This document shows, piece after piece, positions 15,383 through 40,190 of a stretch of 40,190 nt of DNA (position 1 is the first letter of the stretch; each line of letters starts with the position of its first letter). Both the position numbers and the translations under genes were made by a program. The notes beneath the pieces were generated by a model. The model had not been told where the DNA came from and ran no database searches. It saw nothing but the letters and a program-made list of their open reading frames with translations. The stretch lies in NCBI GenBank assembly GCA_050116375.1, contig JASFOT010000001.1:1-40190 (forward strand), written 5' to 3'. This DNA is from Gammaproteobacteria bacterium. GTDB lineage: Bacteria; Pseudomonadota; Gammaproteobacteria; Steroidobacterales; XN24.

Positions 15383-15548
15383 TTCGCAGAGTAAACCCGC
15401 AGAACAGTTGTCTGGAGCGGGACTGTAACGCGAGCGGCAGTCCCGTGTCTCGCCGCCACCGGATATCCCGTAGTGTTAAGTCTGTCATTGTGAAGGGGCG
15501 CCGGCGGTGCTAGAAATGCCGCAATCTTTCCAGCGATGACGGTCGCGT

Positions 15549-17215: not shown

Positions 17216-17227
17216 CGCCAGAACACC

Positions 17228-20466: not shown

Positions 20467-20937
20467 TCAGACCTCGTCACCGCTCTCCTTTTCTTCCGCC
20501 TCGACGAGGACCGGCACCTCGACGTTGACGTCTGTGTGGAGATGAATCTCGATCGTGTGCTCGCCGACGACGCGGATGGGGCCTTCCGGCAAGCGGATTT
20601 CACTTCGCGCCAGCTCGATACCGGCCCGACTGGCCGCATCGGCAATGTCGATGGTGCCTATGGATCCGAAAAGCTTGCCCTCGGAACCGGCCTTGACCGG
20701 GATGACCAGCTTGAGATCTGCGATCTTCTCCGCCCGCGCCGTGGCTTCCGCCAGGTCCTCGGCAGCCTTCGCCTCCAGCTCGGCGCGCTTGGCTTCGAAA
20801 GCCGCGAGGTTTTCCCGCGTAGCCGGCGTCGCCTTGCCCTGGGGGATTAGGTAATTCCGCCCGTACCCGGGTTTCACCTTGACCTTGTCGCCGATACCGC
20901 CGAGATTCTCGACCTGTTCCAGCAGTATTACTTCCAT
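20467..20937 (-). CDS. rplI: 50S ribosomal protein L9
   Basis: 156 aa: [36 protein letters not shown]. Confidence 0.95.
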
Positions 20938-20989
20938 CGTTCCATCCTCTCCTTTGATGCCACGATCCGCATCGCGGCATCGATAAAAC

Positions 20990-21850
20990 CTAGGCGGACT
21001 CCAGCCGGCGCCTGAAGTCCAGCCAGTTATCCACCATCCCGAACAGCGCCAGCACCGGCGCCATGACGCTCATGCCGAAAACCAGCAGCACGTAAACGAC
21101 CGCCAGGGCGGCGCCGGGCCACTTCCGCGCGGCGGCGGCGGCGTGAATCAATGCCAGACCCTGCAGCACAAAAACCGACATCGCGACCAGCAGCAGATTT
21201 GCCAGCAGCGGGTGGTTCGTGGTCAGCCCGCCCAGCAAAATCGCGAGACCTGCAGCCGCCAGGGCCTTGCCCAGCCGAAGGTTCCGAAACGCCTTGCCCA
21301 GAGCACCCGGGCTCGACAGCGACGCGTGCCAGCCCATGCCCAGCAGGAGCCCGCCGACGGCGGCCAGCAGCAGTGTCAGCGCCATTACGCCGGGCACCAG
21401 CGTCAGCATCATGGTCACGGCTTCCTGCTGGAAACCGGCATCTTCCAGCAGCGGCACCAGCTGCTGCCCGAGAGCCTCGGGCACATCGCCCCCGGCCGTC
21501 ACGATCCACATGACGGCCAGAGCGGTACTCGCCACGGTGGCCGTCTGAATTGCCAGACTCAGGGAGCCTGACCGTTTCAACACCTCTGCCAGGCCGATGG
21601 CCGGTGCCCAGAAGACCAGTCCGGCCAGTATAGCCGCCAGCGGCTGTGCTCCGCCGGCGACCGAGGCCAGCAGCAGAATCAGCGTCGCCACCGCCGCCGC
21701 CGACCAGGCCGCACCACTGCCCCGCCTCAGATCCGTCAACACCAACAGGCCCGATCCGACGATTCCGAGCAGCGGGACAAGCGCCAGCGCCGCTGCCGCA
21801 AGACCAGCACGATAAGCCCTCTGCGTGATCCACTCGACGAATTGTTTCAC
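20990..21850 (-). CDS. Polytopic membrane protein of unknown function (DUF2232/YybS-like by position) inserted between rpsR and rplI
   Basis: 286 aa with a GTG start and about 7-8 hydrophobic helices rich in Ala/Leu/Gly. It occupies the same position as an uncharacterised membrane protein in the Pseudomonas rpsF-rpsR-X-rplI-dnaB-alr arrangement (from memory). Confidence 0.65.
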
Positions 21851-21880
21851 GGGGTGATCGGTTATCCGAACCGACCGTCC

Positions 21881-22105
21881 TCAGTGTCGATCGGTGTAGG
21901 GCAGCAGGGCCAAATACCGCGCTCGCTTGACAGCCTGAGACAGCTGCCGCTGGTACTTGGTCTTCGTTCCGGTGATCCGGCTCGGAACGATCTTCCCGGT
22001 CTCGGTGATGTAATTCTTCAGCGTGGCCAGATCCTTGTAATCGATCTCCTCCACGCCCTCTGCCGTAAAGCGGCAGAACTTACGGCGTCTGAAATACCGT
22101 GCCAT
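21881..22105 (-). CDS. rpsR: 30S ribosomal protein S18
   Basis: 74 aa: [47 protein letters not shown]. Confidence 0.97.
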
Positions 22106-22133
22106 CGTTCATATCCTCTCTGTCTTGACCTTC

Positions 22134-22607
22134 TCAGGCTGAAGGTGATGCGGTGTCTTCCTCGGTGTCGGCCTTGCGCTCGCCAGACTCCTGCGCGGAA
22201 TCCTCGTCATCATCCTCAGCGAAATCGGAGTCGTCGTCCGACCCGGATTCCTCGGATTCAGCTCGTGCCGCCGGCCGCTCCTCGATCTCACCCGCCTTGG
22301 CCATGGGCGAAGGCTCTGTGACGGCCGCATCCTTGCTGATCACCAGGTGTCGCAGGATCGCGTCGTTGAACCGGAAGCCCCCCAGAAGCTCGTCGAGCGT
22401 GGCCCTGTCGCACTCGATGTTGAGAAGGATGTAGTGAGCCTTGTGGATCTTGGCTATGGGATATGCGAGCTGGCGTCGGCCCCAGTCCTCTTCGCGGTGG
22501 ATTACACCGCTATTGGCCTCGATCATGGCCCGGTAACGCTGGACCATGGCCGGAACCTGCTCGCTCTGATCCGGATGGACCAGGAAAACGATCTCGTAGT
22601 GACGCAT
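22134..22607 (-). CDS. rpsF: 30S ribosomal protein S6 with extended acidic C-terminal tail
   Basis: Track ORF 22134..22652 trimmed to the ATG giving [18 protein letters not shown], the canonical S6 N-terminus. 157 aa. Confidence 0.94.
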
Positions 22608-22664
22608 TGTGTGTCTCCCTCTGGCTTGCAGCCACCCGTTGGCGTCAACCACGGTGTGGCAAGG

Positions 22665-26018: not shown

Positions 26019-27038
26019 ATGTCCTTGTCGTCGTCGGCCCGCGGTAAACCAGCCCGATTCCGACCCGGAATTTTCAATACCATGTACCACACCATTCTGA
26101 AAAAAGCCTCGCGCTTCCTGGTGATGAAGTCGGTCTTCTTCCTGCCGCGCGAACGACGCATCGCCATCGAGCGCCGGCATCGCGGACGGGAGCAGTACGG
26201 CAAGCTTCGACGGGCTGATTACACGGTAGTTTCGTTCGGCAAGAGCGGCCGCACCTGGCTCCGCGTCATGATTTCCCGGGTATTTCAGGTCAAACACGAT
26301 TTGTCCACCGGCGCGCTGCTTTCCTTCGACAACTTTCACCGCCGTGATTCCGCGATACCGACGGTGTTTTTCACGCATGACAACTACATCCGTGACTACA
26401 CCGGCAGCACAGATGTGCGATCCGACTATGGGGATCGCAAGGTCGTGCTCCTCGTGCGACATCCGGCCGACGTTACGGTCTCCCAGTATTTCCAGTGGAA
26501 GCACCGCATGAAGAGCCGGAAAGTGGACCTCCTGGAGTTCCCCGGCCGGGACCGGGAGATCAGCCTCTACGAGTTCCTCATGGACCCGAAATTCGGGCTG
26601 GTGCGAGCCATCGATTTCATGAATCTCTGGGCGCGGGATATTCCGAGCCTCGAACATTTCCTGATGGTCAGATACGAGGACCTGCGGGCCGATCCCGGCG
26701 CCGCTCTTGACAAGGTTCTGCAGTTCATGGGAACGACCGCCACCGAAGCCGAACTCAGGGACGCGGTGGAATTCGGTTCCGTGGAAAACATGCGAAAGAT
26801 GGAGCAGAAAGGAAGTTTCTGGCTCAGCGGCGGCCGCATGAAACCGCGTGATCGTGACAATCCGGATTCCTACAAGGTGAGGCGCGCCAAAGTCGGTGGA
26901 TACCGGGATTACTTCGACGACGAACAGGCGGCCCGTATCAGTGAGCTGCTGGAATCACGGCTTTCCCCGATCTATGGCTATACCAGACAGTCGCCCGACG
27001 CCACCACAACCCCGGAAACCCGCAAGGCCACCGCATGA
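26019..27038 (+). CDS. PAPS-dependent sulfotransferase family protein (paralog 1)
   Basis: 5'-PSB loop FGKSGRTWLRV and 3'-PB region LVRHPADVTVSQYF, plus RYEDLRADP and YKVRRAKVGGYRDYF, which are shared with the two paralogs. The alternative start ATG 26082 (MYHTILKK) matches the paralog N-terminal lengths better. Confidence 0.8.
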   Translation: MSLSSSARGKPARFRPGIFNTMYHTILKKASRFLVMKSVFFLPRERRIAIERRHRGREQYGKLRRADYTVVSFGKSGRTWLRVMISRVFQVKHDLSTGALLSFDNFHRRDSAIPTVFFTHDNYIRDYTGSTDVRSDYGDRKVVLLVRHPADVTVSQYFQWKHRMKSRKVDLLEFPGRDREISLYEFLMDPKFGLVRAIDFMNLWARDIPSLEHFLMVRYEDLRADPGAALDKVLQFMGTTATEAELRDAVEFGSVENMRKMEQKGSFWLSGGRMKPRDRDNPDSYKVRRAKVGGYRDYFDDEQAARISELLESRLSPIYGYTRQSPDATTTPETRKATA

Positions 27039-27994
27039 ATGACGCCAGACAGAAACCGCCCCCGGAATCGGAGAAGAACGGAGCCGATACCGTGAAACCC
27101 TGCGTCTTCATTCACACCAACGAAAAGCAGATGCTCGGCGCGCTGGTATCCCGTTACTCGTTACGTAGAAACAGCGCGCACGCAGATCGTTTCGACATCC
27201 GTTTCATCGAGGCGGGCGCGCAGGCATTTATGCTGGAGCGTGAAGGCCAGCTATACCTCCGTGACGGGGAAAAACGACCCTGGCTGAACGACGATCTGCA
27301 GTCATTCACGCCGCTGCGATTCATGCCGCCGGAACTCATGGGTTACCGGGGAAGGGCCCTGGTTATCGATCCGGACATTTTTGCGGTCAGGGACGTATGG
27401 GAGCTCTTGTCCCGGGATATGGACGGCAAGGCCATCATGTGCCGTCCCAAGTCAGGCTCGAAGGGCAAACGCGGTGCCCTGGCCTCCAGCGTAATGCTGC
27501 TGGATTGCGCCAGACTCACGCATTGGAAAGTGGCCGAGCAGTTCGCGGAAATGTTCGATTTCAGCCGGGATTACATGGACTGGATCTCACTGAAACTCGA
27601 GGACCGGAGCACGATCGGTCTTTTCGGCCCCGAGTGGAACGATTTCGACCATCTGGACGAGAACACCCGCCTCCTTCACAACACCAAACGCAAGACCCAG
27701 CCCTGGAAGACAGGTCTGCCGGTCGATTACCGGCCCGCCGACACTTTCCGGCTTTTTCCGCCCCGACACTGGATACGTCGGGCACGCCGTGCCCTGTTCG
27801 GCGATTACCGTTTTGCAGGGCGCTACAAGGAGCACCCGGATCCGCGGCAGGAACAGTTCTTTTTCGGCCTTCTTAGGGAATGCATGGACCAGGGAATCGT
27901 CGATGAATCGCGACTGCGGCAGGAAATGAGCAACAATCACATCCGCCACGACGCGCTGGAGATAATAGCCAGAACGCCCCCGCTGGCAGCATGA
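27035..27994 (+). CDS. GT8-like (GT-A fold, DxD) glycosyltransferase with conserved C-terminal extension (paralog a)
   Basis: By-eye alignment to the LgtC/GT8 pattern. CVFIHTNEKQ...IRFIEAG matches IVFAADDNY...IRFHVLDAG. SFTPLRFMPPEL..GRALVIDPDIFAVRDVWELL is the DxD region. SSVMLLDCARLTHW matches NAGVLLINLKKW. HNTKRKTQPW matches H..G..KPW. The ATG overlaps the stop of sulfotransferase 1 (ATGA). Confidence 0.68.
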   Translation: MNDARQKPPPESEKNGADTVKPCVFIHTNEKQMLGALVSRYSLRRNSAHADRFDIRFIEAGAQAFMLEREGQLYLRDGEKRPWLNDDLQSFTPLRFMPPELMGYRGRALVIDPDIFAVRDVWELLSRDMDGKAIMCRPKSGSKGKRGALASSVMLLDCARLTHWKVAEQFAEMFDFSRDYMDWISLKLEDRSTIGLFGPEWNDFDHLDENTRLLHNTKRKTQPWKTGLPVDYRPADTFRLFPPRHWIRRARRALFGDYRFAGRYKEHPDPRQEQFFFGLLRECMDQGIVDESRLRQEMSNNHIRHDALEIIARTPPLAA

Positions 27995-28034: not shown

Positions 28035-29018
28035 TCAGGGCGTGCCCGATTTTTCCTGCTCCGGTTGTGCCGGCAATTCCTGAGGCCGGGCCCGGTCTTC
28101 GTCGGTCGCCGGCACGCTGCTGTAGCCAAACCGCGAATCCAGATCCCGCTCCAGCATGGCATCGATCTGCTTTACCTGGTCATCGGTGAAATAATCCCGG
28201 TATCCGCCGACTTTGGCCCGGCGAACCTTGTAGGAATTCGGATTGCCCTTCTCTCCCGGCACCAGCCGCCAGCCGGTACGCCACAACGGGAAGGAGCTTT
28301 TCTCCTCCATCTTCTTGAGATTGTCGAAGGCCGCGAATTCCACTGCGTCACGAACCTGCTCTTCGCTTGCGGGGGTTCCCGTGAAAGCGAGTATCTTCGC
28401 CAGCACTGCGCCGGGGTCTGCGCGCATGTCCTCGTATCGAATCACCAGCACGTCACCCAGTCTAGGGACCCATTCCAGCCAGGCATTGAAGTAGCTGATG
28501 ATCCTGGGCAATCCCTGTTCCGGGTACATCACGAAGTCGAAAACGGACATCTCTTCGCCGTGGGCCGGGTAGTCATTCAGGCGTTTCTTGTGGGGCCGCA
28601 TCCGATACCGCCACTGGAAATACTGGGAGACCGCCACGTCCCGGGGATCCCGGACGAGAAACACGATTTTCTTACCCATGAAATCGATCTTCGTGTCATA
28701 GCCGTGACCCGTGTAGTCGCGCAGATAATTGCCGTGGGTGAAGAAGATCCTGGGAACCCGCCTGTCCATGCGATTCAGGTTATCGAAATCCAGCATGTGG
28801 TAGTCGGGGAGATCGAACATCAGCTGATAGACGCGTGACAGCATGACGCGCAGCCAGGTCCTGCCGCTCTTGCCCCATGAAACCAGCAGCCAGTCGGCCC
28901 GGTGCAGTTTCCGAAATTCTTCCCTGCCCCGAAGCCTGCGATCGATGGCCTTTCGTTGGGAATACGGCAGAAAGAAAAGCAGCGCGAGCTTCGCGTGCCT
29001 GGACAGGGCTTCCCACAC
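28035..29018 (-). CDS. PAPS-dependent sulfotransferase family protein (paralog 2)
   Basis: 327 aa with a GTG start: WGKSGRTWLRV, LVRDPRDVAVSQYF, RYEDMRADP and YKVRRAKVGGYRDYF. Confidence 0.8.
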   Translation of the reverse strand: MWEALSRHAKLALLFFLPYSQRKAIDRRLRGREEFRKLHRADWLLVSWGKSGRTWLRVMLSRVYQLMFDLPDYHMLDFDNLNRMDRRVPRIFFTHGNYLRDYTGHGYDTKIDFMGKKIVFLVRDPRDVAVSQYFQWRYRMRPHKKRLNDYPAHGEEMSVFDFVMYPEQGLPRIISYFNAWLEWVPRLGDVLVIRYEDMRADPGAVLAKILAFTGTPASEEQVRDAVEFAAFDNLKKMEEKSSFPLWRTGWRLVPGEKGNPNSYKVRRAKVGGYRDYFTDDQVKQIDAMLERDLDSRFGYSSVPATDEDRARPQELPAQPEQEKSGTP

Positions 29019-29295: not shown

Positions 29296-29934
29296 ATGAC
29301 CGTGCTCGATCTAGGCGCCATAGACGCAGCACCCCTTCAGACAGATCCCTTTGATTTTCTTGTAGTTCCCGGCTGCATTCGTCCCGATGACCTGACCGCG
29401 ATCAACGGGGACTATCCGAATATTGATCGACCGGGGAATCTCAATCCGGAGGACACCCGTTACGGCCCGCTTTTCCAGGGCTTTCTGCAGGAACTGGAGG
29501 GCGAGGAACTCGCTCGACACCTGGGGCGCAAGTTCGGCGTGGATCTTACCGGCTGCGGGACGACAGTGACCGTGCGAAAGTACTGTGAGCAGAGCGACGG
29601 CAACATTCACACCGATCACCCAAGCAAGATCATCACGGTGCTGGTGTATTTCAACGAGGGATGGGCCAATCCCGAGGGACAGCTCAGGATGCTGCGCTCG
29701 TCCTCCGACATCGAGGATTATGCGGCGGAGGTGCCGCCGCTCGGCGGGACGCTGCTTGCGTTCCGACGCACCGATCACTCCTACCACGGACACAAGTCAT
29801 TCGTGGGCGAGCGCCGTATGGTACAGATGAACTATCTGAAATCCGGGCGTCTGTCCCAATGGAAACAGCAGATCGATCGATTCGGCACCCGGACCATGAA
29901 AAAGGCCCTGCGCCTGCTGCAACCCGGCGCCTGA
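29296..29934 (+). CDS. 2-oxoglutarate/Fe(II)-dependent oxygenase family protein
   Basis: Track ORF 29200..29934 trimmed to ATG 29296 (MTVLDLG). It has an HxD facial-triad motif (NIHTDHP), a distal His (SYHGH) and a downstream Arg (ERRMVQMNY), in a 2OG-FeII_Oxy-like layout. Confidence 0.72.
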   Translation: MTVLDLGAIDAAPLQTDPFDFLVVPGCIRPDDLTAINGDYPNIDRPGNLNPEDTRYGPLFQGFLQELEGEELARHLGRKFGVDLTGCGTTVTVRKYCEQSDGNIHTDHPSKIITVLVYFNEGWANPEGQLRMLRSSSDIEDYAAEVPPLGGTLLAFRRTDHSYHGHKSFVGERRMVQMNYLKSGRLSQWKQQIDRFGTRTMKKALRLLQPGA

Positions 29935-29948
29935 CGGCGGCAGTCAGG
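29930..29948. terminator. Short hairpin enclosing both stop codons of the convergent oxygenase and ELM1a genes
   Basis: CCTGAC (29930-29935), a 7-nt loop, then GTCAGG (29943-29948). The 6-bp stem has no U-tract. Part of the symmetry is a trivial consequence of TGA/TCA. Confidence 0.2.
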
Positions 29949-31113
29949 TTATCTCTTTCACAAGCGCCCGGACTCTGGCCACCACCCGTGGCAGATCGTC
30001 CGGAATTTCACCCGTGGGCTGGCCCAGCGGTCTTCCGGCCTCCACAGCCAGACCTCGTTCAATCAGGAGATCGTGCACAGCCGTGAAGTCGCGGGTCCTC
30101 GGCAGGATCCGCAGACGAGCGCCAATCGCTCGCAGCAAATGCCGGATCCGGTCCCCCGCCCCGCCTTTGTCCGGCTGGTAAAGCCAGCGAGCGCCGACAC
30201 GACGGATCCGGTCAATTTTGTGCAGCCATCCATAAGGCAGGCGGAAAATCGCGAGAGGTTTCCTGAGCTTCACCACCTCCACCATCATGGAGATGCTGTC
30301 ACCGGTGACGACAAAGCCGTCCGCGAGCCCCAGGAGGGCCTGATACGGATTGCCCTCCGCACCCCTTTTCCATTCGAAAAAACGGGCGCCCTCCGGCAGC
30401 CCTTCCCGGAGAGCATTCACCACTCGCGGAGGCGTCCTCGGACTGGTCGTCACATAGGGCGTGCCCCCGTCCCGTTCGATCACCTCCCGCGCCGTCTCGA
30501 TCAGTCCTTCCCTGACCTGCCTGTCGAACATGAACGGATTCGTCGGCCCGCCGACCAGAATGCCGATCAGGGGCCGCGGAAGATCCGAAAGCCTCTCGCG
30601 CCACTCTTCGGTGGCGGAACGGATCCGTTCCTCGTCAACCTTCAGCAGGGGAAGAGAAATCCGCATAACGTTGGGCGTCGGAGCGATCTGCACTTCGGCG
30701 CTGGTAATGATCAGGGAGAACGGATCGCTGGATCCCGAGGGCTTGCCCACCAGCACGAGCTTCGTCCGGCCTCCCGACTGCTCGCGGATCCAGAGGGCTA
30801 CCATGGACAAACGCCGACCGACGGTGATGACGACATCAGGCCACGGCGGCGAAAGTGGATCCGAGTTCTCCAGATCCAGGTGATGAAGCGACGGGATGAC
30901 CTTGGGCTTGCCCTTGATCCAGGGAGCCTTGACTCGAACATATCGCCTTTCGCAGGGCATCCCCAGCGCCGCGACAAGATTTTCCACCTGAGCATTGTCG
31001 CCGAGACGATCGCCGACGATCATCCATATCCGTGGCGGGGATGAATTCGAACGCAATCCGTCCGGCGTGCCGACGGCCCCCGGACCGTCCGTCGCTGCCT
31101 CCCGGTGTGTCAT
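29944..31113 (-). CDS. ELM1/DUF1022 family protein, putative GT-B-type glycosyltransferase (paralog a)
   Basis: The track ORF starts at TTG 31125, and the first ATG is at 31113 (MTHREA). Motifs shared with the other two paralogs: IWMIVGDRLGDNAQV, PWPDVVITVGRR, GILVGGPT, TTSPRTP, NPYQALLGLADGFVVTGDSISMMVE. Confidence 0.72.
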   Translation of the reverse strand: MTHREAATDGPGAVGTPDGLRSNSSPPRIWMIVGDRLGDNAQVENLVAALGMPCERRYVRVKAPWIKGKPKVIPSLHHLDLENSDPLSPPWPDVVITVGRRLSMVALWIREQSGGRTKLVLVGKPSGSSDPFSLIITSAEVQIAPTPNVMRISLPLLKVDEERIRSATEEWRERLSDLPRPLIGILVGGPTNPFMFDRQVREGLIETAREVIERDGGTPYVTTSPRTPPRVVNALREGLPEGARFFEWKRGAEGNPYQALLGLADGFVVTGDSISMMVEVVKLRKPLAIFRLPYGWLHKIDRIRRVGARWLYQPDKGGAGDRIRHLLRAIGARLRILPRTRDFTAVHDLLIERGLAVEAGRPLGQPTGEIPDDLPRVVARVRALVKEIT

Positions 31114-31155: not shown

Positions 31156-32130
31156 TCAGCCCGACGCGGTGGCGGGCTGGGAAGCCTCCTCGTCCGCCGG
31201 ACCGTATCCGAGACTCGGCGAGAGCCGTGCACGGACGATTTCCTCCAGTTCGGCGACCTGCTCCGGTGTAAAGTAATCCCGGTATCCGCCAACCTTGCCA
31301 CGACGCACCTTGAAAGTATTGGGGTCCTTGGGATCACGGAGCGTCAGGCCTCCCTGGCGGAAAAACCCCTTGGTCTCAAGCTGACGAAGATTGTCGAAAG
31401 AGCCGAAACGAACGGCTTCCTGGATCTCGTCGTCGCTGAAATCCCGTTCCATCAGTTCAACTACGCGCCTGAGATTCTCGGCCGGCCGGGCGCGCAGATC
31501 CTCGTAGCGCAGGACCATCCCGCGGTCGAGAGCCGCGACGTTCCGCTCCCAGGTATTCAGGTAATCCACCAGAAACGGCAGCCCGATATCGCTGTGCCGG
31601 ACAAAATCCCACATGCCAATGGTGCGTCGATCAATGGGATGATCGATGAAATGGTTGATCAGCTCCTGCTTGTGCCGCGACTGTCGTTTTGTGAACTGGA
31701 AAAACCATGAAACCGCGATGTCGCAGGGATGACGGGCGATGAAAAGAACGGGCTTGTGGCGAAGATCGGAGTCCGGCGCGCCCGGCGCCAGCGCTTCACC
31801 GATGATGCCCTCGTAGCTGTAATAACCGTTACTCGCGGCGAGCCGCGGAATCTCGGGATGTTTCAGCGCCAACTCGTCTGTGTTGATAAGCCGGGAGGCG
31901 GGCAGGCCGTACCGGACCTGAAACAGCCGGGAGATCATCACCTTGAGCCAGGTGTTCCCGCTCTTGGGATGACCGATAATGAGCAGCTGGGCCCGACGGG
32001 CCTTGGCCAGCTCCAGTCTCGCCAGATGACGGCGACGTATGGAGACGCGCTGACGTGCCGGAAGTGGGTAAGTCGGCAGCAAGATAGACCATTTCTTGAC
32101 GCCGTCGCTGATCCTGAGCATGTGAGTCAC
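31156..32130 (-). CDS. PAPS-dependent sulfotransferase family protein (paralog 3, most divergent)
   Basis: 324 aa with GTG 32130 or ATG 32121 as the start: GHPKSGNTWLKV, IARHPCDIAVSWFF, RYEDLRARP and FKVRRGKVGGYRDYF. Confidence 0.8.
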   Translation of the reverse strand: MTHMLRISDGVKKWSILLPTYPLPARQRVSIRRRHLARLELAKARRAQLLIIGHPKSGNTWLKVMISRLFQVRYGLPASRLINTDELALKHPEIPRLAASNGYYSYEGIIGEALAPGAPDSDLRHKPVLFIARHPCDIAVSWFFQFTKRQSRHKQELINHFIDHPIDRRTIGMWDFVRHSDIGLPFLVDYLNTWERNVAALDRGMVLRYEDLRARPAENLRRVVELMERDFSDDEIQEAVRFGSFDNLRQLETKGFFRQGGLTLRDPKDPNTFKVRRGKVGGYRDYFTPEQVAELEEIVRARLSPSLGYGPADEEASQPATASG

Positions 32131-32354
32131 CGATGTCAGGAGCCAGGCGGCGGAGGTGCCGGCGCCGGTCCTGGCCCAGTTGGAATGAAGTCAGCCGCCT
32201 ATTATGGGCCAGCCCTGGTCAGATCGCCACCTGCGACACCGGTTGCGGGTAACGGCGGCGCGGGTCCGGTCACCCCCCGGCGACCGACCTGCCGGATGTC
32301 ATACAATCCCGCCGGCGCCCCGCATGGATTGAACGCCTCGTCTCGACAGATTTC

Positions 32355-33452
32355 ATGAACCAGCCATCCCAACCGGATCTGCAAGCGGGAGCGACCGTCA
32401 TAGCGTCCCGGCCCCAGCCCCTGGTCTGGGTCATCTCCGGGTACAGGGCGGGTGAAACAACCCAGTTACTGGCGCTGGCGGAGGCACTGGGATGGCCCTT
32501 CGAGGTCAAAGAACTCCGCCATCGCCGCTGGGATTTCGTCCCGGGCCTTCTTCGTCTCAGCAGCCTGGCCGGAATCGAAAAAGCGGCACGGGAGGATCTC
32601 CGGGCTCCGTGGCCGGATCTGGTGATAAGCGCCGGCATGCGGAACGAACCGCTCGCGAGATGGATCAAGGACCGCGCGGGAGGAGAATGTCGCCTCGTCA
32701 ACGTGGGAAGGCCCTGGGCGGGCTTCGATCATTTCGATCTTGTGATTACGACGCCCCAGTATCGCCTGCCCGAACGGCCCAATATCCTCCAGAACATCGG
32801 CACCATGCATCTGTTCACCGACCACGCGCTGGCCGCCGCCGCACGGCGCTGGAAACCGGAATTCGAGCACCTTCCCGGGCCCTACATCGGAGTACTCATC
32901 GGCGGCCACAGCGGCCCGTATACGTTGGGCCCGGCCGCGGCCCGGCGACTGGCCGTCGCTGCCGGGCGATTGGCCCGGGAGATGGAGGGATCACTTCTGG
33001 CCACCACCAGTTCCAGAACATCCGCCGCCGCCACCGAGGCCTTTGCCGGGGCTCTCGACTGCCCGCACTACCTTTTCAGGTGGTCGCCGGACTCCATCCA
33101 GAACCCCTATCAGGGCATCCTGGCTACCGCCGATCTGCTGATTGTCACCAGCGACACGGTGTCGATGATTTCGGAAGCCGTGGGCACCGGCAAACCTGTT
33201 TTTGTCTTCGACCTGGACGGCGACGACGACTTTCGCCTGGGCGCGCTTTTCTACCGCCTCCTGATGCGCGTCGGGCATCCCCGCCTCACCCGGGATCTGG
33301 AATTATTTCATCGTCGGCTCACAGAGACGGGCCGGGCCGCCTGGCTGGGGGAGTCGCTGTCGAAAGTCAGGTCCGAGCCCCTGGACGATCTGGCGCGGGC
33401 GGTGACCCGGGTTAAGGCGCTCGTCACCAGCCGCGATTCCCGAAACGCTTGA
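32355..33452 (+). CDS. ELM1/DUF1022 family protein, putative GT-B-type glycosyltransferase (paralog b)
   Basis: 365 aa: VWVISGYRAGETTQL, PWPDLVISAGMR, GVLIGGHSG, TTSSRTS, NPYQGILATADLLIVTSDTVSMISEA. Confidence 0.72.
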   Translation: MNQPSQPDLQAGATVIASRPQPLVWVISGYRAGETTQLLALAEALGWPFEVKELRHRRWDFVPGLLRLSSLAGIEKAAREDLRAPWPDLVISAGMRNEPLARWIKDRAGGECRLVNVGRPWAGFDHFDLVITTPQYRLPERPNILQNIGTMHLFTDHALAAAARRWKPEFEHLPGPYIGVLIGGHSGPYTLGPAAARRLAVAAGRLAREMEGSLLATTSSRTSAAATEAFAGALDCPHYLFRWSPDSIQNPYQGILATADLLIVTSDTVSMISEAVGTGKPVFVFDLDGDDDFRLGALFYRLLMRVGHPRLTRDLELFHRRLTETGRAAWLGESLSKVRSEPLDDLARAVTRVKALVTSRDSRNA

Positions 33453-33673
33453 TATGAGACGCAGACACCCGGGCCCCGCCAGGCCCCGCGCCACGGGACC
33501 GGCGAATACATCCGGCGGCGGCGATTCCGGGCAATTCACCCCGGCCGGCATACGCGGTAACATACCGGTCGGGCGGACACGGGATTGTCCCATCCGCCGG
33601 GAAGCTGTTGGTCCGCACTATTTGCGCATCAAGACATCGGCTCCACAGCCCGAAGAACGACAAGGGAGTTTCG

Positions 33674-33928
33674 ATGGCCACCTATGAAGAGTGCCTGAAG
33701 ATAGTCCGGGATGTTCTGGGCGATCAGCTGGAACCGGGGAAAACAGCCGACGAAAAAGATGCTCTGGTAGCCGATTTGGGAATGGGATCCCTGCAGATGC
33801 TGGAGCTCGTAGTGGAAATCGAGGACCTTCTCGACATCAGCCTGCCGCTGAACCAGTTACCCGAGATCCAGACCGTGGAGGATTTTGCCCGGATGCTGGA
33901 ATCGGTTTCTGCCGGATCTTCCCAATGA
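33674..33928 (+). CDS. Acyl carrier protein (dedicated, SPT-associated)
   Basis: Track ORF 33608..33928 trimmed to ATG 33674, which follows AAGGGA. 84 aa. LVADLGMGSLQMLELVVEIEDLL aligns with E. coli ACP [23 protein letters not shown], with Ser at the phosphopantetheine position. The stop overlaps the spt start (ATGA at 33925-33928). Confidence 0.8.
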   Translation: MATYEECLKIVRDVLGDQLEPGKTADEKDALVADLGMGSLQMLELVVEIEDLLDISLPLNQLPEIQTVEDFARMLESVSAGSSQ

Positions 33929-35127
33929 GCCTTTTTGACAAGTTTGCGCCCCTGTCGAACCTTCGGAGCGATCTGCTCGAGCACGGCATCCTGCCGTTCG
34001 GAGTGGTAACCGAGAAGATTCTCTCTCCCACCGAGGGTATCGTGGATGGCCGCAGGACCATACTTGCCGGTACCAACAATTACCTGGGTCTGACCTTCGC
34101 CCCCGAGTGCGTGGAGGCCGCCCGCAAGGCATTGTCCGAAGAGGGCACCGGCACCACCGGCTCCCGCATGGCCAACGGCACTTACGGAGCCCACGCTGCT
34201 CTGGAGCGAGAACTCGCCGAGTTCTTCGATCGTGAACACGCGCTGGTTTTCACCACCGGATTTCTGGCCACGATGGGCATGGTGTCCACGCTGGCGGGGC
34301 GCGGTGATGTGCTGCTTATCGACGCCGATTCCCACGCCAGTATCTACGACGGCTGCCGGCTCAGCGGGGCCGAAGTCATCAGGTTCCGCCACAACGATCC
34401 CAAAGATCTCGATAAACGCCTCGGGCGGCTCGGAGACCGCAGCGGCAACACCTTAGTGGTAGCCGAGGGTCTGTACAGCATGCTGGGCGACCAGGCGCCC
34501 CTGCAGGAAATTGTCGATGTCAAGGACAAACACGGCGCGATCCTGCTGCTGGACGAGGCCCATTCCATGGGCGTTTTCGGTGATCGCGGGCGCGGCCTGG
34601 CTGAAGCCGCAGAGGTCGAAGACCGGGTCGACTTCGTCGTGGGGACGTTCAGCAAGAGCCTGGGCTCCGTTGGGGGCTTTTGCGTCAGCAACCATCCCGA
34701 ACTGGAGCTCGTCCGGATGGCGGCGCGGTCCTATATATTCACGGCGTCACCGACTCCGTCGGTGGTGGCGTCGACTCGTGCGGCCCTGAAGATGATCAGC
34801 GATCATCCTGAACTGAGAGACCGTCTCTGGGACAATTCGCGGCAACTGTATGACACCCTTGCCCGGGCAGGTTTCCAGCTGGGCCCGCAACCAGGTCCGG
34901 TCGTGGCTGTCTTTGTCGACGATCCGAAACGGGCAGTGTCATGGTGGCACCGACTCCTCGAACAGGGCGTTTACGTGAACCTGGTGATCCCGCCGGCGAC
35001 GCCCAGCACCAGTTGCCTGCTCCGTTGCAGTATCAGCGCGGCCCACACCCGGGAACAGGTGGACCGGATTTCAGAGGCCTTTGTCTCGCTGCTCCCGAAG
35101 CGCCAGGCGGCGGGCTCCGCAGTCTAG
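33925..35127 (+). CDS. spt: Serine palmitoyltransferase (alpha-oxoamine synthase family, PLP-dependent)
   Basis: Track ORF 33691..35127 trimmed to ATG 33925 (MSLFDKF). 400 aa. Long collinear matches to remembered Sphingomonas paucimobilis SPT: SPTEG.V.G..TIL.GT.NY.G.TF, DADSHASIYDGC....AE.IRFRHN...DLDKRLGRL, G.YSMLGD.APL.E.V.V..KHGA.L..DEAHSMG.FG..GRG, DFVVGTFSKS.G.VGGF.VSNHP, YIFTAS.PSVVA, LLRCSI.A.HT. These are much closer than to the Kbl encoded at 453..1643. Confidence 0.88.
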   Translation: MSLFDKFAPLSNLRSDLLEHGILPFGVVTEKILSPTEGIVDGRRTILAGTNNYLGLTFAPECVEAARKALSEEGTGTTGSRMANGTYGAHAALERELAEFFDREHALVFTTGFLATMGMVSTLAGRGDVLLIDADSHASIYDGCRLSGAEVIRFRHNDPKDLDKRLGRLGDRSGNTLVVAEGLYSMLGDQAPLQEIVDVKDKHGAILLLDEAHSMGVFGDRGRGLAEAAEVEDRVDFVVGTFSKSLGSVGGFCVSNHPELELVRMAARSYIFTASPTPSVVASTRAALKMISDHPELRDRLWDNSRQLYDTLARAGFQLGPQPGPVVAVFVDDPKRAVSWWHRLLEQGVYVNLVIPPATPSTSCLLRCSISAAHTREQVDRISEAFVSLLPKRQAAGSAV

Positions 35128-36857
35128 GTTTCTCCGGAAGCCCGATCACGTTTGGGCGCCGCGCCCGACTCGTGGGACTCCAGTCTCCCTTCCACCATCC
35201 GATAGACGGTATTCGAGAACTCAGCCAGCGCTGGCTGATGAGAAACCGCCACGATTGTGATCTCCCGCGCCAACGCCTTCAGTGTCCTGCAGATTTCTGC
35301 CTCGCTTTCGGCGTCAAGAGCGCTGGTAGCCTCATCCAGCACCAACAGCCTTGGCCCGTGGACGAGCGCCCGCGCCAGCATGATTCGTTGCCTCTGCCCG
35401 GCAGAGACCCTCGCACCACGTTCACCGACGCTGGTATACATCCCTTCGGGCATTGACTCGACGAACGACCACGCATCTGCCTTTTCCAGGGCCCTGCGGG
35501 CGTCGGCTTCGGAGAGGTCCGGATCTCCGAGGGTCACGTTGTTGAGAATCGTATCGTGCAGCAGGACAGTATCCTGGGGCGCATAGCCGATCTGTTTCCT
35601 CCACTCGTGGAGGTTGACGGAATCCAGCGGAATCCCGTCGATTCGCACTTCACCCGTATCCGGCGAGTGCAGACCGGCAATAAGATCGAGTATGGTGGTC
35701 TTCCCCGAACCGGATCGGCCGATGATTGTCGTCAGCCCTCGGGTCGGAATTCGCAGGTCGACGTTTTTGAGAACCGGCTCTCCCTCGTAACTGAAGGAGA
35801 CGTCGTCCAGCACGATTTCCCGATCCAGGCCAGGCGCCGGTGCGCCGCCATATTCCTCACGCTTGGCGTCGGCTTCCTCAACAGCCTGGAGCATCGACCA
35901 GTAGGCGCTCTCCGCCGCCACCATTTTCTGATAGTGCTTCTGTATCTTTCCCAGATGCGCCAGAACCCGGGTCAGCACCAGAACCAGTACCAGAACCTCG
36001 GCAATCGGCATGCCCCAGCGTTCGAGCAACAGGAAGATACCTGCCGCTATTACGACCGCGAACATGGGTTCCTGGGCCGAGGTCAGCATGGCCTTGCTGA
36101 ACACCTCCTTTTCCAGCGCCTTGTTGAGCCGACCGGTCTCGGTTCTCAGCACGTTATCCGCCAGGCCCTCCCGTCCCATGGCTTTGAGAGTCTTGACCGA
36201 GTGAAGCGTATCGGTCATACGCGACAACAGGGATCTCAGCAGGACCGTCTGTCGCTTTCCGGCCTTGCGGGTCATTTTCACAAGGAAATGCGACACGAAG
36301 AGAATCACGAAACCCGCGGCCAGCGAGGCAAGGGTCGCCCGCCAGGAAACCATCATGGCTACCGATCCGTAGATGACAGCCTGGATGCCGTAAGCCACGA
36401 TGCCGACGCCGAATTCGTAGGCGATCGAGGCCCGCCATGCCTCCGTCGCCATGCTGTTGGTGAGCCGACCCACCGGCTGATGAACAAAATAGCTCCAGCG
36501 GCTGGACATCACGGCCCTCAGCAGACGCAGCCGAAGATCCGTGGTCACCCGGGCCTTTGTGTACCCGACCTGCCGCTCCGCGACGAGCAGCAGAATACTT
36601 TTCAGAAAGATCCCGAGGACCGCCACCACCAGCAGGTTACCGATCGTCGGCGTGATTCCCGCATTGGTGAGAAATTCCGTCACCTGCCTGGCGAATTCGG
36701 ACTGCTGACCTCCATCTGCCCCGCTGTCCACGGCAAGGCTCAGTATGGGCAGCAGCACCGAGATGCTGGAGCCTTCCGCCAGCCCGGCCAGCAAAAGCGC
36801 CGCGACCATCAGGAGGCTCTGCCAGGGATAAGCCCGGGTGAAAGTGACGAGAATCAT
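35124..36857 (-). CDS. ABC transporter, fused permease/ATPase exporter (MsbA-like type I exporter)
   Basis: 577 aa with six N-terminal TM helices followed by an NBD. The NBD has Walker A GRSGSGKTT, Q-loop, signature VSAGQRQR, Walker B LLVLDEATSALD and H-loop VSHQ. Confidence 0.9.
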   Translation of the reverse strand: MILVTFTRAYPWQSLLMVAALLLAGLAEGSSISVLLPILSLAVDSGADGGQQSEFARQVTEFLTNAGITPTIGNLLVVAVLGIFLKSILLLVAERQVGYTKARVTTDLRLRLLRAVMSSRWSYFVHQPVGRLTNSMATEAWRASIAYEFGVGIVAYGIQAVIYGSVAMMVSWRATLASLAAGFVILFVSHFLVKMTRKAGKRQTVLLRSLLSRMTDTLHSVKTLKAMGREGLADNVLRTETGRLNKALEKEVFSKAMLTSAQEPMFAVVIAAGIFLLLERWGMPIAEVLVLVLVLTRVLAHLGKIQKHYQKMVAAESAYWSMLQAVEEADAKREEYGGAPAPGLDREIVLDDVSFSYEGEPVLKNVDLRIPTRGLTTIIGRSGSGKTTILDLIAGLHSPDTGEVRIDGIPLDSVNLHEWRKQIGYAPQDTVLLHDTILNNVTLGDPDLSEADARRALEKADAWSFVESMPEGMYTSVGERGARVSAGQRQRIMLARALVHGPRLLVLDEATSALDAESEAEICRTLKALAREITIVAVSHQPALAEFSNTVYRMVEGRLESHESGAAPKRDRASGET

Positions 36858-37029: not shown

Positions 37030-38145
37030 ATGAACGACCCTGCAAACCCGCCGCCGGGTACCGAGGCACCAGCCGTCTGGGTCCTGCTCGGCCACAAGGC
37101 TGGGGACAACAATCAGGTCATCGCCCTGGCGGAGAGCCTCGGGGTCCCGTTCGCGGAAAAACGCATGCGTTATCGACCCACCGAACTCTGGAGCAACCTG
37201 CTCCTGGGTCCGAATCTGCTGGGGATAAGTCGCGTTTGTGCGGGACAGCTGAGGCCACCCTGGCCGAAGCTGGTCATATCTGCCGGTCGCCGGAACGAGC
37301 CGGTCGCCAGGTGGATACGGCAACAGGCCGGGCCCGCCGTACGCCTGGTTCACATCGGTCGACCATGGGCGCGTCCGGAGCGTTACGACCTGATCATTTC
37401 CACGCCGCAGTACTGCCTCGACCGTTACCCGAACGTCATGATCTTCGAACTGCCCCTGCACCGGATCGCAGAGGATCGTCTGGAGATGGCCGCGCTGACC
37501 TGGCGTGACCGGCTCGCCCACCTGCCGGCGCCGCGGATCGCCGTCCTGGTGGGGGGGGAATCCGGCGGATTCCATCTGGATCGGGCAAAAGCTGCGCGGC
37601 TTGGGCGGGAGGCCGATCGCCTGGCACAAGGTCTGGGCGGATCGCTGATGATTTCGACCAGCGCGCGAACCCCGCGGCATGCAGCCAGGGAACTGACCGC
37701 TGAACTGCGCTCACCCTTCTTTCTTTTTGATTGGCATGCCGGGGGCGCGGACAACCCCTACCTGGCTTTTCTAGCCATGGCAGATCGGTTCATCGTCACC
37801 GGCGAGAGCATGTCGATGCTGACCGAGGCCTGCGCCACCAGGCGGCCTGTCTACATCTTCGATATGTCCGACAGGCCGGGCTCGGGTCGGGAATCAGCGC
37901 CTGCAGACCTGTTCGGACGCATCGCCAATTCGCTCCGCTACCGCGCCATCACCCACCGCCTCGCGCAGCATCTGGCGCCTGTCAGGATGCGGCGCGACGT
38001 ATCACGGCTGCACCGCGCGCTGATCGGCTCCGGTCGGGCAGCGTGGCTGGGTGAGGAATTTCCCCAAGCGCCCCCGCCTCCCCTGCCGGACGCCACCGGC
38101 GCCACCGAGAGGGTGCGGGAGCTGCTGGAATCGCGACAGCGGTGA
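37030..38145 (+). CDS. ELM1/DUF1022 family protein, putative GT-B-type glycosyltransferase (paralog c)
   Basis: 371 aa: VWVLLGHKAGDNNQV, PWPKLVISAGRR, AVLVGGESG, STSARTP, NPYLAFLAMADRFIVTGESMSMLTEA. It is closest to paralog b. Confidence 0.72.
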   Translation: MNDPANPPPGTEAPAVWVLLGHKAGDNNQVIALAESLGVPFAEKRMRYRPTELWSNLLLGPNLLGISRVCAGQLRPPWPKLVISAGRRNEPVARWIRQQAGPAVRLVHIGRPWARPERYDLIISTPQYCLDRYPNVMIFELPLHRIAEDRLEMAALTWRDRLAHLPAPRIAVLVGGESGGFHLDRAKAARLGREADRLAQGLGGSLMISTSARTPRHAARELTAELRSPFFLFDWHAGGADNPYLAFLAMADRFIVTGESMSMLTEACATRRPVYIFDMSDRPGSGRESAPADLFGRIANSLRYRAITHRLAQHLAPVRMRRDVSRLHRALIGSGRAAWLGEEFPQAPPPPLPDATGATERVRELLESRQR

Positions 38146-38169: not shown

Positions 38170-39105
38170 TCAGGCGGGGAGCTCCATGGGCAGACTCGGC
38201 GCCGGGGCCAGGGGCGGGGTCCTGTCAACGACTTCGAGCGCATCGTGGCGAACGTGGTTCTTCGACATTTCCTGCCGGAGCATCTCTTCGCTGATGACGC
38301 CCGTGTCCAGACACTCCTTCAGCAGACCGAAGAAAAAGCGCTCCTGGTTCGGATCCGGATGCGCCTTGTAGTTGCCGAGAAAGGCGTACTCACCAAACAG
38401 CTTGCGACGAGCCCGCATCGCCCACGCGACGGGCGGGAACAGCCGGAATCGCTCTGCCGGGCGCCAGTCGGTCGGCAAACCGGTTTTCCACGGCTGGGTC
38501 CTCCGGCGAGTGTTGTGGAGCATCTTGGTCTGACGGGTCAAACGATCGAAATCGTTCCATTCAGGCTCGAAAAAGCCGATGGATTCTCTGTCCTCGAGCT
38601 TCAGGCAGATCCAGGGCTGATAGTCGCGCTTGAATTCGAACATCTCACGGAATCCCTGCTCCGCGTCCCAGTGTCGCAGCTTCGCGCAATCCAGCAGCAT
38701 GACGCTGCTCGCCATACACTTGTCGATGTATCCCTTGGGCCCGGACCTCATCCGGCACATGACGGCCTTGTCTTCCATGTCGCGGCTGAGGAGTTCCCAG
38801 ATATCACCGACGGCGAAAATGTCGGGATCGATAACGACGGCCCGTCCCTGGTAGCCCATAAGTTTCGGCGGCATGAAACGCAGCGGCGTAAACGACTGCA
38901 GGTCGTCGTTCAGCCAGACCCGCTGGACGCCGTCCCGCAGATACATCCTGCCTTCGTGTTCCTGCAGCCAGGGGTAGTCCGCCGTGTCGATGATCTGGAC
39001 ATCGAATTTGTCGGCATTGGGAGAATTCCGCTTGAGTGCGTACTTGGCCACCAGCGCACCGGTGATCTGTTTATGGTTCGTATGGATGAATACGCAGTGA
39101 TCCAC
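38170..39105 (-). CDS. GT8-like (GT-A fold, DxD) glycosyltransferase with conserved C-terminal extension (paralog b)
   Basis: 311 aa, collinear with 27035..27994 over its whole length and roughly two-thirds identical by eye. Shared blocks include WLNDDLQSFTPLRFMPP, VIDPDIFAV.D.WELLSRDM, ASSVMLLDC, TQPWKTGLP, HPDP.QE.FFFGLL.EC and LRQEMS.NH.RHDALE...RTPPLA. Confidence 0.68.
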   Translation of the reverse strand: MDHCVFIHTNHKQITGALVAKYALKRNSPNADKFDVQIIDTADYPWLQEHEGRMYLRDGVQRVWLNDDLQSFTPLRFMPPKLMGYQGRAVVIDPDIFAVGDIWELLSRDMEDKAVMCRMRSGPKGYIDKCMASSVMLLDCAKLRHWDAEQGFREMFEFKRDYQPWICLKLEDRESIGFFEPEWNDFDRLTRQTKMLHNTRRRTQPWKTGLPTDWRPAERFRLFPPVAWAMRARRKLFGEYAFLGNYKAHPDPNQERFFFGLLKECLDTGVISEEMLRQEMSKNHVRHDALEVVDRTPPLAPAPSLPMELPA

Positions 39106-39261: not shown

Positions 39262-40190
39262 TTATCTCAGAACTCCGCGCCGATACAGTCGCCAGAGCTC
39301 TCCCCAGACGTGAAGCCACGGGCGTCGCCTGACCCGCTCCGGAATCTGCACCGGAACGCCGCTGTGGCGCTCCAGTTTCCAGGCAGCGTAATCCAGCCCG
39401 CCTTCGAATGTGGCAAGGGCTTTCAGCCAGCGCGCCGGACTCATGAGTTTGCCTGTGATCCTGCGTGTCGCCCAGGCGAGCCGGGCGCCGCGGACCCGCC
39501 ACGGCGACACCGAACTGATGAATACCGCCTGCCCTCCCGTGTCCGTCATATCCAGCCCCAGACTCGGGGCCAGCGACGCGGTCAGGCTCCGGTAAAACTG
39601 CGCATTGTCCTCGACCAGCTCCCTCGACCGGCTGCCGGATTCGGGCCGCAGCTCGGTCCCGTAACTCAGTTCCAGCGCGCCGGTCCAGATCTCCAGCGCG
39701 TCCGCCGGCGACCGGGCCAGCGGGATGGTGCGCCTAAGCAGGGTTTCCGCGGCTGCCGCGAGACACCCGACGACGGCCTCCCGGGCCGAAGGGTCGCGGG
39801 CGTATGCCAGAAGACACGGCTGCGCGAATCGGCCCCAGAGGTAAGGGTGAAACCACTTGCCTCCCGTGCCCCGGCGGAAATCCCGGAGACTGATCACGGC
39901 GTACTTGGCGCGGATCTTCCCCCCCTGATCCTCGATCTCCATGTAGCCCACCGATGGCGGAAGAACCGCCGCCAGGAGCCTGTCCCGAACCGTTCTGTAG
40001 GCGGCTGCGTAGGACGTCACGATGACGTAGAGATCCACGATTCCGTCCCGCGGATCGTTCTTCCTGAGGCAGGATCCGTAGAAGACGACCGCAGAAACCG
40101 CGTCTCCGAAGCGCTGGCACATTTCGCCAGCCAGCATGTCGATAGCCCGGGGAGCGGCCTGATTCGAACGGGCGCGGATGATTTTTTCGG
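39262..40190 (-). CDS. Tam41/Mmp37-like nucleotidyltransferase-fold protein (possible lipid-phosphate cytidylyltransferase); N-terminus beyond window edge
   Basis: The track ORF is 39262..40137, but the frame stays open to base 40190 (EKIIRARSNQAAPRAIDMLAGE...). By-eye matches to remembered yeast Tam41 follow. VVFYGSCLRKNDPRDGIVDLYVIV matches FVFGYGSGVFEQ...IDIILGV. AKYAVISLRDF....PYLWGRFAQP matches VKYGVVSMETLLKD...FYLAGRLQKP. LELSYGTELRPE matches ALSYAGDIRYK. GGLDYAAWKLER matches KSIKYAWAKKLK. Confidence 0.55.
   Translation of the reverse strand, partial: EKIIRARSNQAAPRAIDMLAGEMCQRFGDAVSAVVFYGSCLRKNDPRDGIVDLYVIVTSYAAAYRTVRDRLLAAVLPPSVGYMEIEDQGGKIRAKYAVISLRDFRRGTGGKWFHPYLWGRFAQPCLLAYARDPSAREAVVGCLAAAAETLLRRTIPLARSPADALEIWTGALELSYGTELRPESGSRSRELVEDNAQFYRSLTASLAPSLGLDMTDTGGQAVFISSVSPWRVRGARLAWATRRITGKLMSPARWLKALATFEGGLDYAAWKLERHSGVPVQIPERVRRRPWLHVWGELWRLYRRGVLR

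Follow-up and report, generated by a model that had tools for sequence, protein, structure and literature searches.

The stretch of DNA analyzed here, 40,190 nt at the start of contig JASFOT010000001.1 (assembly GCA_050116375.1, Gammaproteobacteria bacterium, GTDB order Steroidobacterales, XN24; referred to below, at its full length, as the window), contains a two-gene operon, acpR-spt, encoding an 84-aa acyl carrier protein (ACP) together with a 400-aa serine palmitoyltransferase (SPT), which very probably provides the committed step of bacterial sphingolipid synthesis within a core pathway AasR-AcpR-SPT-CerR. The family membership of SPT, ACP, and AasR, the order of their genes and the in situ co-transcription of the pair were computed in this study, while the substrates and products of this system are inferred by analogy with the characterized Caulobacter and E. 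coli B systems. The elements of the operon (positions within the window) are:

33535..33563 (+): candidate sigma-70-type promoter, TTCACC-N17-TAACAT, a conserved block upstream of acpR-spt
33662..33668 (+): Shine-Dalgarno sequence AAGGGAG as read from the sequence, 5 nt 5' of the ACP start
33674..33928 (+): ACP open reading frame (ORF), 84 aa, start ATG at 33674, stop TGA at 33926-33928
33925..33928 (+): ATGA overlap of ACP stop and spt start, read as translational coupling
33925..35127 (+): spt ORF, 400 aa, start ATG at 33925, stop TAG at 35125-35127

Re-reading of the sequence returned the ORF pair and the overlap at the coordinates given in an initial annotation of this DNA, and the three SPT-type blocks quoted there (DADSHASIYDGC, IRFRHNDPKDLDKRLGRL, DFVVGTFSKSLGSVGGFCVSNHP) are all found in the 400-aa translation.

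The assignment of the 400-aa protein to SPT, rather than to a Kbl or BioF paralog, is supported by the agreement of a curated hidden Markov model (HMM), a tree, conserved residues and gene context. The protein belongs to the class I/II aminotransferase fold (PF00155, E=1.9e-57) and scores 632 bits on NF047599, the NCBI curated SPT equivalog (cutoff 500), to be compared with 599 bits for the characterized SPT of E. coli B and 592 bits for a Nitrosospira homolog on the same model, and it stays under the cutoffs of the sister models for bioF (338 vs. 426 bits), kbl (317 vs. 460), ALAS (246 vs. 339), and CqsA (199 vs. 428). A ranking of PDB entries is led by the SPTs of S. wittichii (2x8u, 458 bits), S. 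paucimobilis (433 bits), and Sphingobacterium (287 bits), followed by Kbl (234), cysteate-C-fatty acyltransferase (198), BioF (173), ALAS (162), and CqsA (105). A neighbor-joining tree of alpha-oxoamine synthases (AOS) was built from 24 sequences (395 columns), among them three characterized SPTs, ALAS, the Kbl of the window, and one AOS each from Flavobacteriales and an actinobacterium, a phylogenetic check of the kind proposed in the initial annotation. All 100 bootstraps place the protein within the alpha/beta/gamma-proteobacterial SPT clade, apart from Kbl and ALAS and grouped with the enzymes of S. wittichii, S. paucimobilis, and E. coli B (55, 52, and 53% identity, respectively); the Flavobacteriales AOS, whose function is uncertain, lies outside this clade (33% identity). 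Conserved residues include the pyridoxal phosphate (PLP) lysine K244, H137, D210, H213, and the serine-carboxylate arginine R367 (Lys265, His159, Asp231, His234, and Arg390 in S. paucimobilis numbering). In addition, S80 and S243 are common to the aligned SPTs and differ in the compared Kbl, ALAS, and Flavobacteriales sequences.

Two other identities of this enzyme were weighed against these data. A synthase of the SPT clade that would use another amino acid (alanine or glycine, leading to 1-deoxy bases, or cysteate, leading to sulfonolipids) appears quite improbable: sulfated and sulfono-1-deoxyceramides of unknown origin are indeed abundant in anoxic marine water (PMC11334938), many sulfur-transfer enzymes are encoded in the gene island around spt (see below), and sequence cannot reveal substrate choice, but the protein sits deep in a clade of serine-using enzymes (52–57% identity), matches the solved cysteate acyltransferase at 198 bits vs. 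458 bits for SPT, and retains R367 and the serines common to aligned SPTs. A redundant Kbl or BioF paralog, as could be surmised from the JGI label of SPT homologs (8-amino-7-oxononanoate synthase) and the NCBI name (generic aminotransferase), was rejected on the curated models, tree, and gene context and can be regarded as excluded, given the bioF and kbl scores above and a genuine kbl already present at 453..1643 (667 bits vs. a cutoff of 460 for glycine C-acetyltransferase), whose product is 32% identical to the SPT, far less similar, as the initial annotation had pointed out.

The 84-aa protein is supported as a specialized acpR-type carrier, predicted to be dedicated to spt. It matches PF00550 (E=1.9e-9), with a predicted phosphopantetheine site at Ser39 in the motif DLGMGSLQ, fails all housekeeping AcpP equivalog models (at most 36 bits, cutoffs 66–92) and reaches 68 bits on a profile HMM of spt-linked ACPs, built from 33 ACPs located directly 5' of spt in other lineages with the clade of the window left out. 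The signature E-I-E-D-x-L-D-I-S-L-P-L-N is present, and the protein is 33% identical to E. coli AcpR. An ACP was recognized directly upstream of spt in 36 of the spt loci examined, and in 35 of these the gap between the two genes ranges from -8 to +10 nt, with -4 (ATGA) being the commonest value. These profile scores, together with the position directly upstream of spt, sustain the earlier claim of a dedicated ACP.

The same earlier reading had derived a stoichiometric co-expression of both proteins from the ATGA overlap; the overlap does support translational coupling, while stoichiometric expression is not shown. A weak GGA alone stands as an upstream ribosome-binding site of spt, and this feature, combined with the overlap, suggests a termination-reinitiation mechanism, in which spt would be translated by ribosomes finishing the ACP. 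At the level of transcription, the locus is present in wetland metatranscriptomes, where RNA-derived contigs with 100% identity run over the ACP-spt junction (33580-34084, 33578-33949, and 33850-34200) and contigs from three metatranscriptomes start at 33578-33580. The pair appears to be co-transcribed from its own start, ~95 nt upstream of the ACP. The candidate promoter TTCACC-N17-TAACAT is the only conserved block in the divergent intergenic region shared by the window and two relatives, L001 and L003 (SPTs 87 and 77% identical; L numbers denote compared loci and contigs). A generic promoter/terminator scan returned counts at the level of shuffled sequence and did not call this block. A regulatory RNA in the ~95-nt leader was considered and rejected, as no Rfam match was obtained (here or across the whole window) and its predicted folding does not surpass that of shuffled sequence (z=+1.4). 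In one metatranscriptome contig, observed in a single run, position 29081 is fused to 37801, so that 8.7 kb are left out, and only 21 nt cover one side; this junction is probably an assembly chimera.

The initial annotation had placed the acyl-ACP synthetase, the reductase, and the N-acyltransferase outside the window, which is literally true, but the first two proved to be located just beyond its 3' end and the third alone stayed unfound. Two contigs that are 99.8–99.9% identical to the window over 9.7–12 kb (L005, a 190.8-kb ENA contig, and L007, NCBI GCA_050049635.1) extend 8.9 kb past this end and carry, read in the orientation of the window and in this order, the remainder of the gene cut at 40190, a metallophosphoesterase, an NTP_transf_3 nucleotidyltransferase, a 585-aa fatty acyl-AMP ligase (FAAL), a 320-aa epimerase-family reductase, a secreted 305-aa protein, and a GFO/PhyH fusion. 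Along its whole length, the AasR-type FAAL shares 47% identity with the ligase encoded in the spt locus of E. coli, and its score on NF006624 is 804 bits, above the cutoff of 600. The reductase encoded directly after aasR (Epimerase/NmrA family) is 40% identical to the epimerase of the E. coli spt locus and presumably functions as CerR. Both genes are found 2.7–5.5 kb past the 3' end of the window, ~7.7 kb downstream of spt.

Several observations weigh against a complete and functional sphingolipid pathway. Foremost among them, a homolog of the ceramide-forming N-acyltransferase bCerS (YghO) was not found in the 28 kb examined (window plus L005/L007; BLASTP and tblastn with E. coli YghO), nor in the related loci L001, L003, and L062-L066 by the same programs, and none of 80 bCerS-bearing metagenome loci, collected with a 15-sequence YghO alignment, could be attributed to the clade of the window by composition (tetranucleotide correlation to the window at most 0.93 vs. 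0.96–0.99 for same-clade controls). Besides, the residue preceding the attachment serine of the ACP is Gly (Ser in the relative L003) instead of the usual Asp, the SPT has Ile at the position of Arg378 in S. paucimobilis (Leu in the functional E. coli SPT), metatranscriptome contigs may include DNA carry-over, and the source organism is uncultured. The absence of bCerS near spt is not decisive, because bcerS is often unlinked to other sphingolipid genes in bacteria (PMC9386255). The attachment site itself (33782..33793, ACP residues 37-40) reads M-G-S-L, or L-S-S-L in L003, compared with the near-universal form D-S-L/V; other ELM1-linked ACPs (ELM1 genes are introduced below) also deviate at this site, having A-S or T-S.

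In the proposed pathway, the 84-aa ACP would receive a fatty acid from AasR on its phosphopantetheine arm, and the PLP-dependent SPT would condense the resulting acyl-ACP with L-serine to 3-oxosphinganine with loss of CO2. The keto group would be reduced at some stage by the CerR-type NAD(P)-dependent reductase, and ceramide would be made by an unlinked or unknown N-acyltransferase. Further steps, if the neighboring genes take part, would include the addition of sugars by glycosyltransferases (GTs) of the GT-B and GT-A types, the addition of sulfate from 3'-phosphoadenosine 5'-phosphosulfate (PAPS) by sulfotransferases, and the flipping of the lipid for export by an MsbA-like ABC protein, yielding an outer-membrane lipid.

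The acpR-spt pair is of a kind already described in Gammaproteobacteria and is no surprise for this class. The implied rarity of sphingolipid synthesis among its members, as put forward in the initial annotation, is outdated; the ACP next to spt, mentioned there as a known arrangement, is published for C. crescentus, S. wittichii, and E. coli B (PMC9386255). The acpR-spt-aasR arrangement has been reported in Proteobacteria of the alpha, beta, and gamma classes (Padilla-Gomez et al. 2022, PMC9386255), and a preference for acyl-AcpR was shown for the C. crescentus, E. coli B, and S. wittichii enzymes (PMC9386255); A. vinelandii and P. luteola were added as bearers of the spt system (PMC11324152), an NCBI equivalog model exists, and RefSeq E. 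coli genomes already carry the name 'spt: serine palmitoyltransferase'. Our genome scan, based on peptide patterns and missing the closest SPT relatives (> 62% identity), located SPT homologs with 51–62% identity in Wenzhouxiangella (an isolate), Steroidobacteraceae, Panacagrimonas, a Halomonas metagenome-assembled genome (MAG), Pseudomonadales MAGs, Nitrosospira, and many alphaproteobacteria. Clade names used here derive from protein-source labels only (e.g., Gammaproteobacteria bacterium SG8_31, Chromatiales MAG). The pair thus mainly corrects annotation, the identical protein being named a generic aminotransferase by NCBI and close homologs BioF by JGI, and it adds an abundant uncultured clade of sediment and wetland gammaproteobacteria to the likely producers of sphingolipids.

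The island in which this operon is embedded runs from rnr past the window end, and it is kept as a whole in the relatives L001 and L003. Apart from acpR-spt, its genes within the window are:

26019..27038 (+): PAPS-type sulfotransferase, first island gene after rnr (PF00685, E=8e-22; PAPS motifs)
27035..27994 (+): GT8-like paralog, 319 aa, 66% identical to the product of 38170..39105; ortholog in L064 57% identical
28035..29018 (-): PAPS-type sulfotransferase, 327 aa (PF00685, E=6e-25; motifs GKSGRTW and RRAKVGGYRDYF)
29296..29934 (+): 2-oxoglutarate-Fe(II) oxygenase, 212 aa according to gene finders (PF13640)
29944..31023 (-): ELM1a, ELM1-family GT-B protein (PF06258, E=2e-49; orthologs 44–52% identical in L063 and L064)
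31156..32121 (-): PAPS-type sulfotransferase, 321 aa, transcribed in situ (PF00685; motifs PKSGNTW and RRGKVGGYRDYF)
32355..33452 (+): ELM1b, ELM1-family GT-B protein, predicted glycosyltransferase (PF06258, E=4e-63)
35124..36857 (-): ABC half-transporter with a membrane and an ATPase domain, MsbA/HepA-like, predicted lipid flippase/exporter (PF00664 and PF00005)
37030..38145 (+): ELM1c, ELM1-family GT-B protein (Pfam E=1.7e-64; orthologs 45–50% identical in L063, L064, and L065)
38170..39105 (-): GT8-like GT-A protein, 311 aa, no Pfam domain, fold assigned by AlphaFold2/Foldseek
39262..40190 (-): conserved protein of ~312 aa, cut by the window end, no Pfam family, recurring with spt

Gene neighborhoods were compared through families supported by Pfam or BLAST, as raw ORFs are polluted by antisense shadow ORFs at high GC content; the ORF 31729..32358 (+) was rejected as a gene, since no gene finder calls it and it overlaps the sulfotransferase on the opposite strand.

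The AlphaFold2 model of ELM1b (pLDDT, the predicted confidence score, of 88) displays a GT-B fold, for which Foldseek returned MurG, MGD1, WaaG, and UDP-GlcNAc 2-epimerases, and the model of the 311-aa protein (pLDDT 82) matches GlyE, LgtC, glycogenin, and LARGE1 with probability 1.00 and contains an invariant DPD motif. The family of this GT8-like protein comprises at least 6531 members without a Pfam domain and retains 73–79% identity across orders, an unusually high conservation that extends over Sedimenticola, Halieaceae, Pseudomonadales, and a MAG labelled Planctomycetes. PAPS-binding motifs are intact in all three Sulfotransfer_1 proteins; the nearest solved structures for the one at 28035..29018 are cytosolic SULTs together with Teg12, Teg14, and StaL, and the distribution of these sulfotransferases is limited to the clade of the window and one MAG labelled Planctomycetes. 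The ABC gene is convergent with spt, their stop codons overlapping; its product stays under the cutoffs of the models for MsbA, HepA, and CydD and has orthologs with 47–55% identity in L010, L064, and L065.

In the comparison with other lineages, no gene was linked to acpR-spt as consistently as ELM1b within the SPT subclade of the window. It adjoins the pair in L014, L022, L064, L065, and L066 and is located directly downstream of spt in L010, and several of these loci also carry the ABC protein, ELM1c, the GT8-like protein, and LptF/G. Among the top 120 ELM1b homologs, 19 are encoded on contigs equal in size to those of the top 120 SPT homologs (some of only 3–5 kb), and the same holds for 6 of the top 120 GT8-like homologs. 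The loci L062-L064 additionally contain a DAGK_cat kinase, a faintly Tam41-like protein, a Wzy_C protein, and an Sfp-type phosphopantetheinyl transferase. Within the clade of the window, the block follows rnr in the window and L001, while in L003 (CP070833.1, a closed genome of 2.89 Mb) it is found between an FtsX/MacB-type gene and unrelated genes, with aasR, cerR, NTP_transf_3, and metallophosphoesterase genes not detected within 10 kb of it; these different flanks indicate that the block was rearranged within the clade.

Two neighbors of spt deserve separate mention. Homologs of the ~312-aa protein encoded at the window end (L064 7672..8607, L063 12912..13847) occur in alpha- and gammaproteobacterial spt loci, and those in L062-L064 show a faint match to Tam41 (CDP-diacylglycerol synthase), with the DAGK_cat kinase alongside. 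This protein might activate phosphorylated ceramide and may be a counterpart of Caulobacter CpgC. The other case is an EPSP_synthase-family (enolpyruvyl-transferase-like) gene, which directly follows spt in L065 (11329..12609) and L066 (11197..12492), where SPTs are 67–69% identical, abuts the spt stop in L066, and is not part of the island in the window.

Based on gene context, we tentatively propose that the sphingoid lipid is further glycosylated, sulfated, and exported, a sulfated glycosphingolipid being a plausible product of the island. In this tentative scheme, acpR-spt might be the module that supplies the lipid anchor in a conserved system for an envelope glycolipid, with three distinct ELM1-type GT-B proteins, two GT8-like GT-A proteins, and an MsbA-like exporter, to which a sediment/wetland clade would have added three acquired PAPS sulfotransferases; in other lineages, with the same reservation, LptF/G paralogs and a ceramide-kinase-type gene could represent further parts of this system.

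The main competing explanation, which we regard as somewhat less probable than this scheme, is that the GT, sulfotransferase, and ABC genes modify the core of lipopolysaccharide (LPS) or another envelope glycan and stand beside spt through the clustering of envelope genes. It would fit the single case in which a bacterial ELM1 protein was studied functionally, that of A. baumannii, where it acts on the Kdo2-lipid A inner core of lipooligosaccharide (LOS) (PMC10936431), as well as the role of GT8 enzymes (e.g., LgtC) as classic LOS core transferases and the presence of LptF/LptG and a ligase-like Wzy_C gene in related clusters. Evidence against this explanation includes the position of ELM1b next to acpR-spt in at least six independent arrangements and the matching contig sizes of 19 of its top 120 homologs and of SPT homologs, which include contigs of 3–5 kb. 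Moreover, related clusters hold a DAGK_cat (ceramide-kinase-type) gene along with other genes recurring with spt, and spt-linked LptF/LptG paralogs are known from Caulobacter and E. coli B (PMC11324152).

An improbable alternative would make the island the source of a secreted sulfated amino-lipid natural product, with FAAL, ACP, and oxoamine synthase as its starter cassette. Cassettes of the FAAL-ACP-AOS type and sulfotransferases of the SULT/StaL type do occur in secondary metabolism, and two oxygenase genes are at hand (2OG-FeII_Oxy_3 in the window and the GFO/PhyH fusion outside it), but the same genes are conserved beside core genes in many genomes, related clusters contain Lpt-type genes of outer-membrane lipid transport, and no signature of polyketide synthases, nonribosomal peptide synthetases, or tailoring enzymes is present.

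The recurrent linkage of ELM1 and GT8-like genes to acpR-spt provides a testable hypothesis on the function of bacterial ELM1 proteins and of a large uncharacterized family, and the three sulfotransferases suggest a route by which bacteria could make sulfated sphingolipids. If the envelope glycosphingolipid proposed above is real, the island would be a candidate genetic source for the sulfated sphingolipids observed in anoxic marine environments, and bacterial ELM1 proteins would gain a first functional setting outside LPS. Our literature search found no paper on an island of ELM1, GT8-like, and sulfotransferase genes linked to spt, and this context of acpR-spt appears to be undescribed; it merits a separate look as a possible sulfated-glycosphingolipid system.

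The whole window has a uniform GC content (59–66%). Pfam confirms the flanking core genes named in the initial annotation (rnr, rlmB, the rpsF operon, dnaB, and ffh) and the confirmed set comprises ffh, trmD, rimM, radA, alr, dnaB, rplI, rpsR, rpsF, rlmB, and rnr. A search for priB between rpsF and rpsR was negative, the order at 20467..22652 (-) being rpsF-rpsR-DUF2232-rplI. The kbl gene is followed by a zinc-dependent alcohol dehydrogenase-family gene, which fits tdh. Other observations include: a TRAP transporter operon (DctP, DctQ, DctM, and a TAtT T-component gene) at 4636..8329 (-), adjoining an S49 signal-peptide peptidase; a 91-nt tRNA-Ser called by ARAGORN at 15481..15571 (+), with an anticodon AGA unusual in bacteria, which overlaps the initial 23 nt of the longest ORF for the Ser/Thr kinase gene (15549..16370); and a trio of consecutive signaling genes at 15549..17923 (+), between radA and alr, coding for a Ser/Thr protein kinase of the eukaryotic type, a PP2C phosphatase, and a protein with an FHA domain.

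A side-by-side comparison with known systems delineates what is shared and what is specific in this locus. The alpha-oxoamine synthase fold and PLP chemistry are common to the window SPT and to Kbl, BioF, and cysteate-C-fatty acyltransferase, which differ by their 32–34% identity, their placement in other clades and curated models, and the lack of an ACP partner. The PLP-Lys, His, Asp, His, and Arg390-equivalent are the same as in the solved SPTs of S. wittichii (2X8U) and S. paucimobilis (2JG2/2JGT), to which the window SPT is 55 and 52% identical from end to end, whereas the position of Arg378, before the PPATP loop, is taken by Ile in the window SPT (and by Leu in E. coli). A close match at the level of gene organization is the AcpR-Spt-AasR system (C. 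crescentus CC_1163/1162/1165, E. coli B ECD_02853/02854/02851, and S. wittichii; PMC9386255), which likewise has a coupled ACP directly 5' of spt; the E. coli locus also has genes for an AasR ligase and a reductase of the epimerase family, arranged aasR-cerR as here. Unlike these systems, the locus described here has ~7.7 kb of other genes between acpR-spt and aasR-cerR, and the clade of the window has no nearby yghO/bCerS, GS/SS for DS in the ACP, and different neighbors.

In the Caulobacter cluster CC_1152-CC_1168 (ceramide phosphoglycerate, LptC2/F2/G2; PMC11324152, PMC9393093), ceramide-core, head-group, and transport genes are likewise clustered, and the NTP_transf_3/CofC-like nucleotidyltransferase and the phosphoesterase of the window clade are, as compared by description, of the enzyme types of CC_1153 and CC_1158. 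A Caulobacteraceae MAG locus (L021) does not contain CpgA-C or counterparts of CC_1152/1153/1158. Unlike the Caulobacter cluster, the 28 kb examined here contain no ceramide kinase, PgsA-like transferase, or LptF/G; in place of this set they encode three ELM1-type, two GT8-like, and three sulfotransferase proteins together with the MsbA-like ABC protein. Finally, the A. baumannii ELM1-like protein 2903/GtrOC1 (PMC10936431, PMC4172580) resembles the ELM1 proteins of the window in its PF06258 domain, GT-B fold, and location in an envelope glycolipid locus, but its acceptor is Kdo2-lipid A of the LOS core, whereas the ELM1 genes described here are linked to spt instead.

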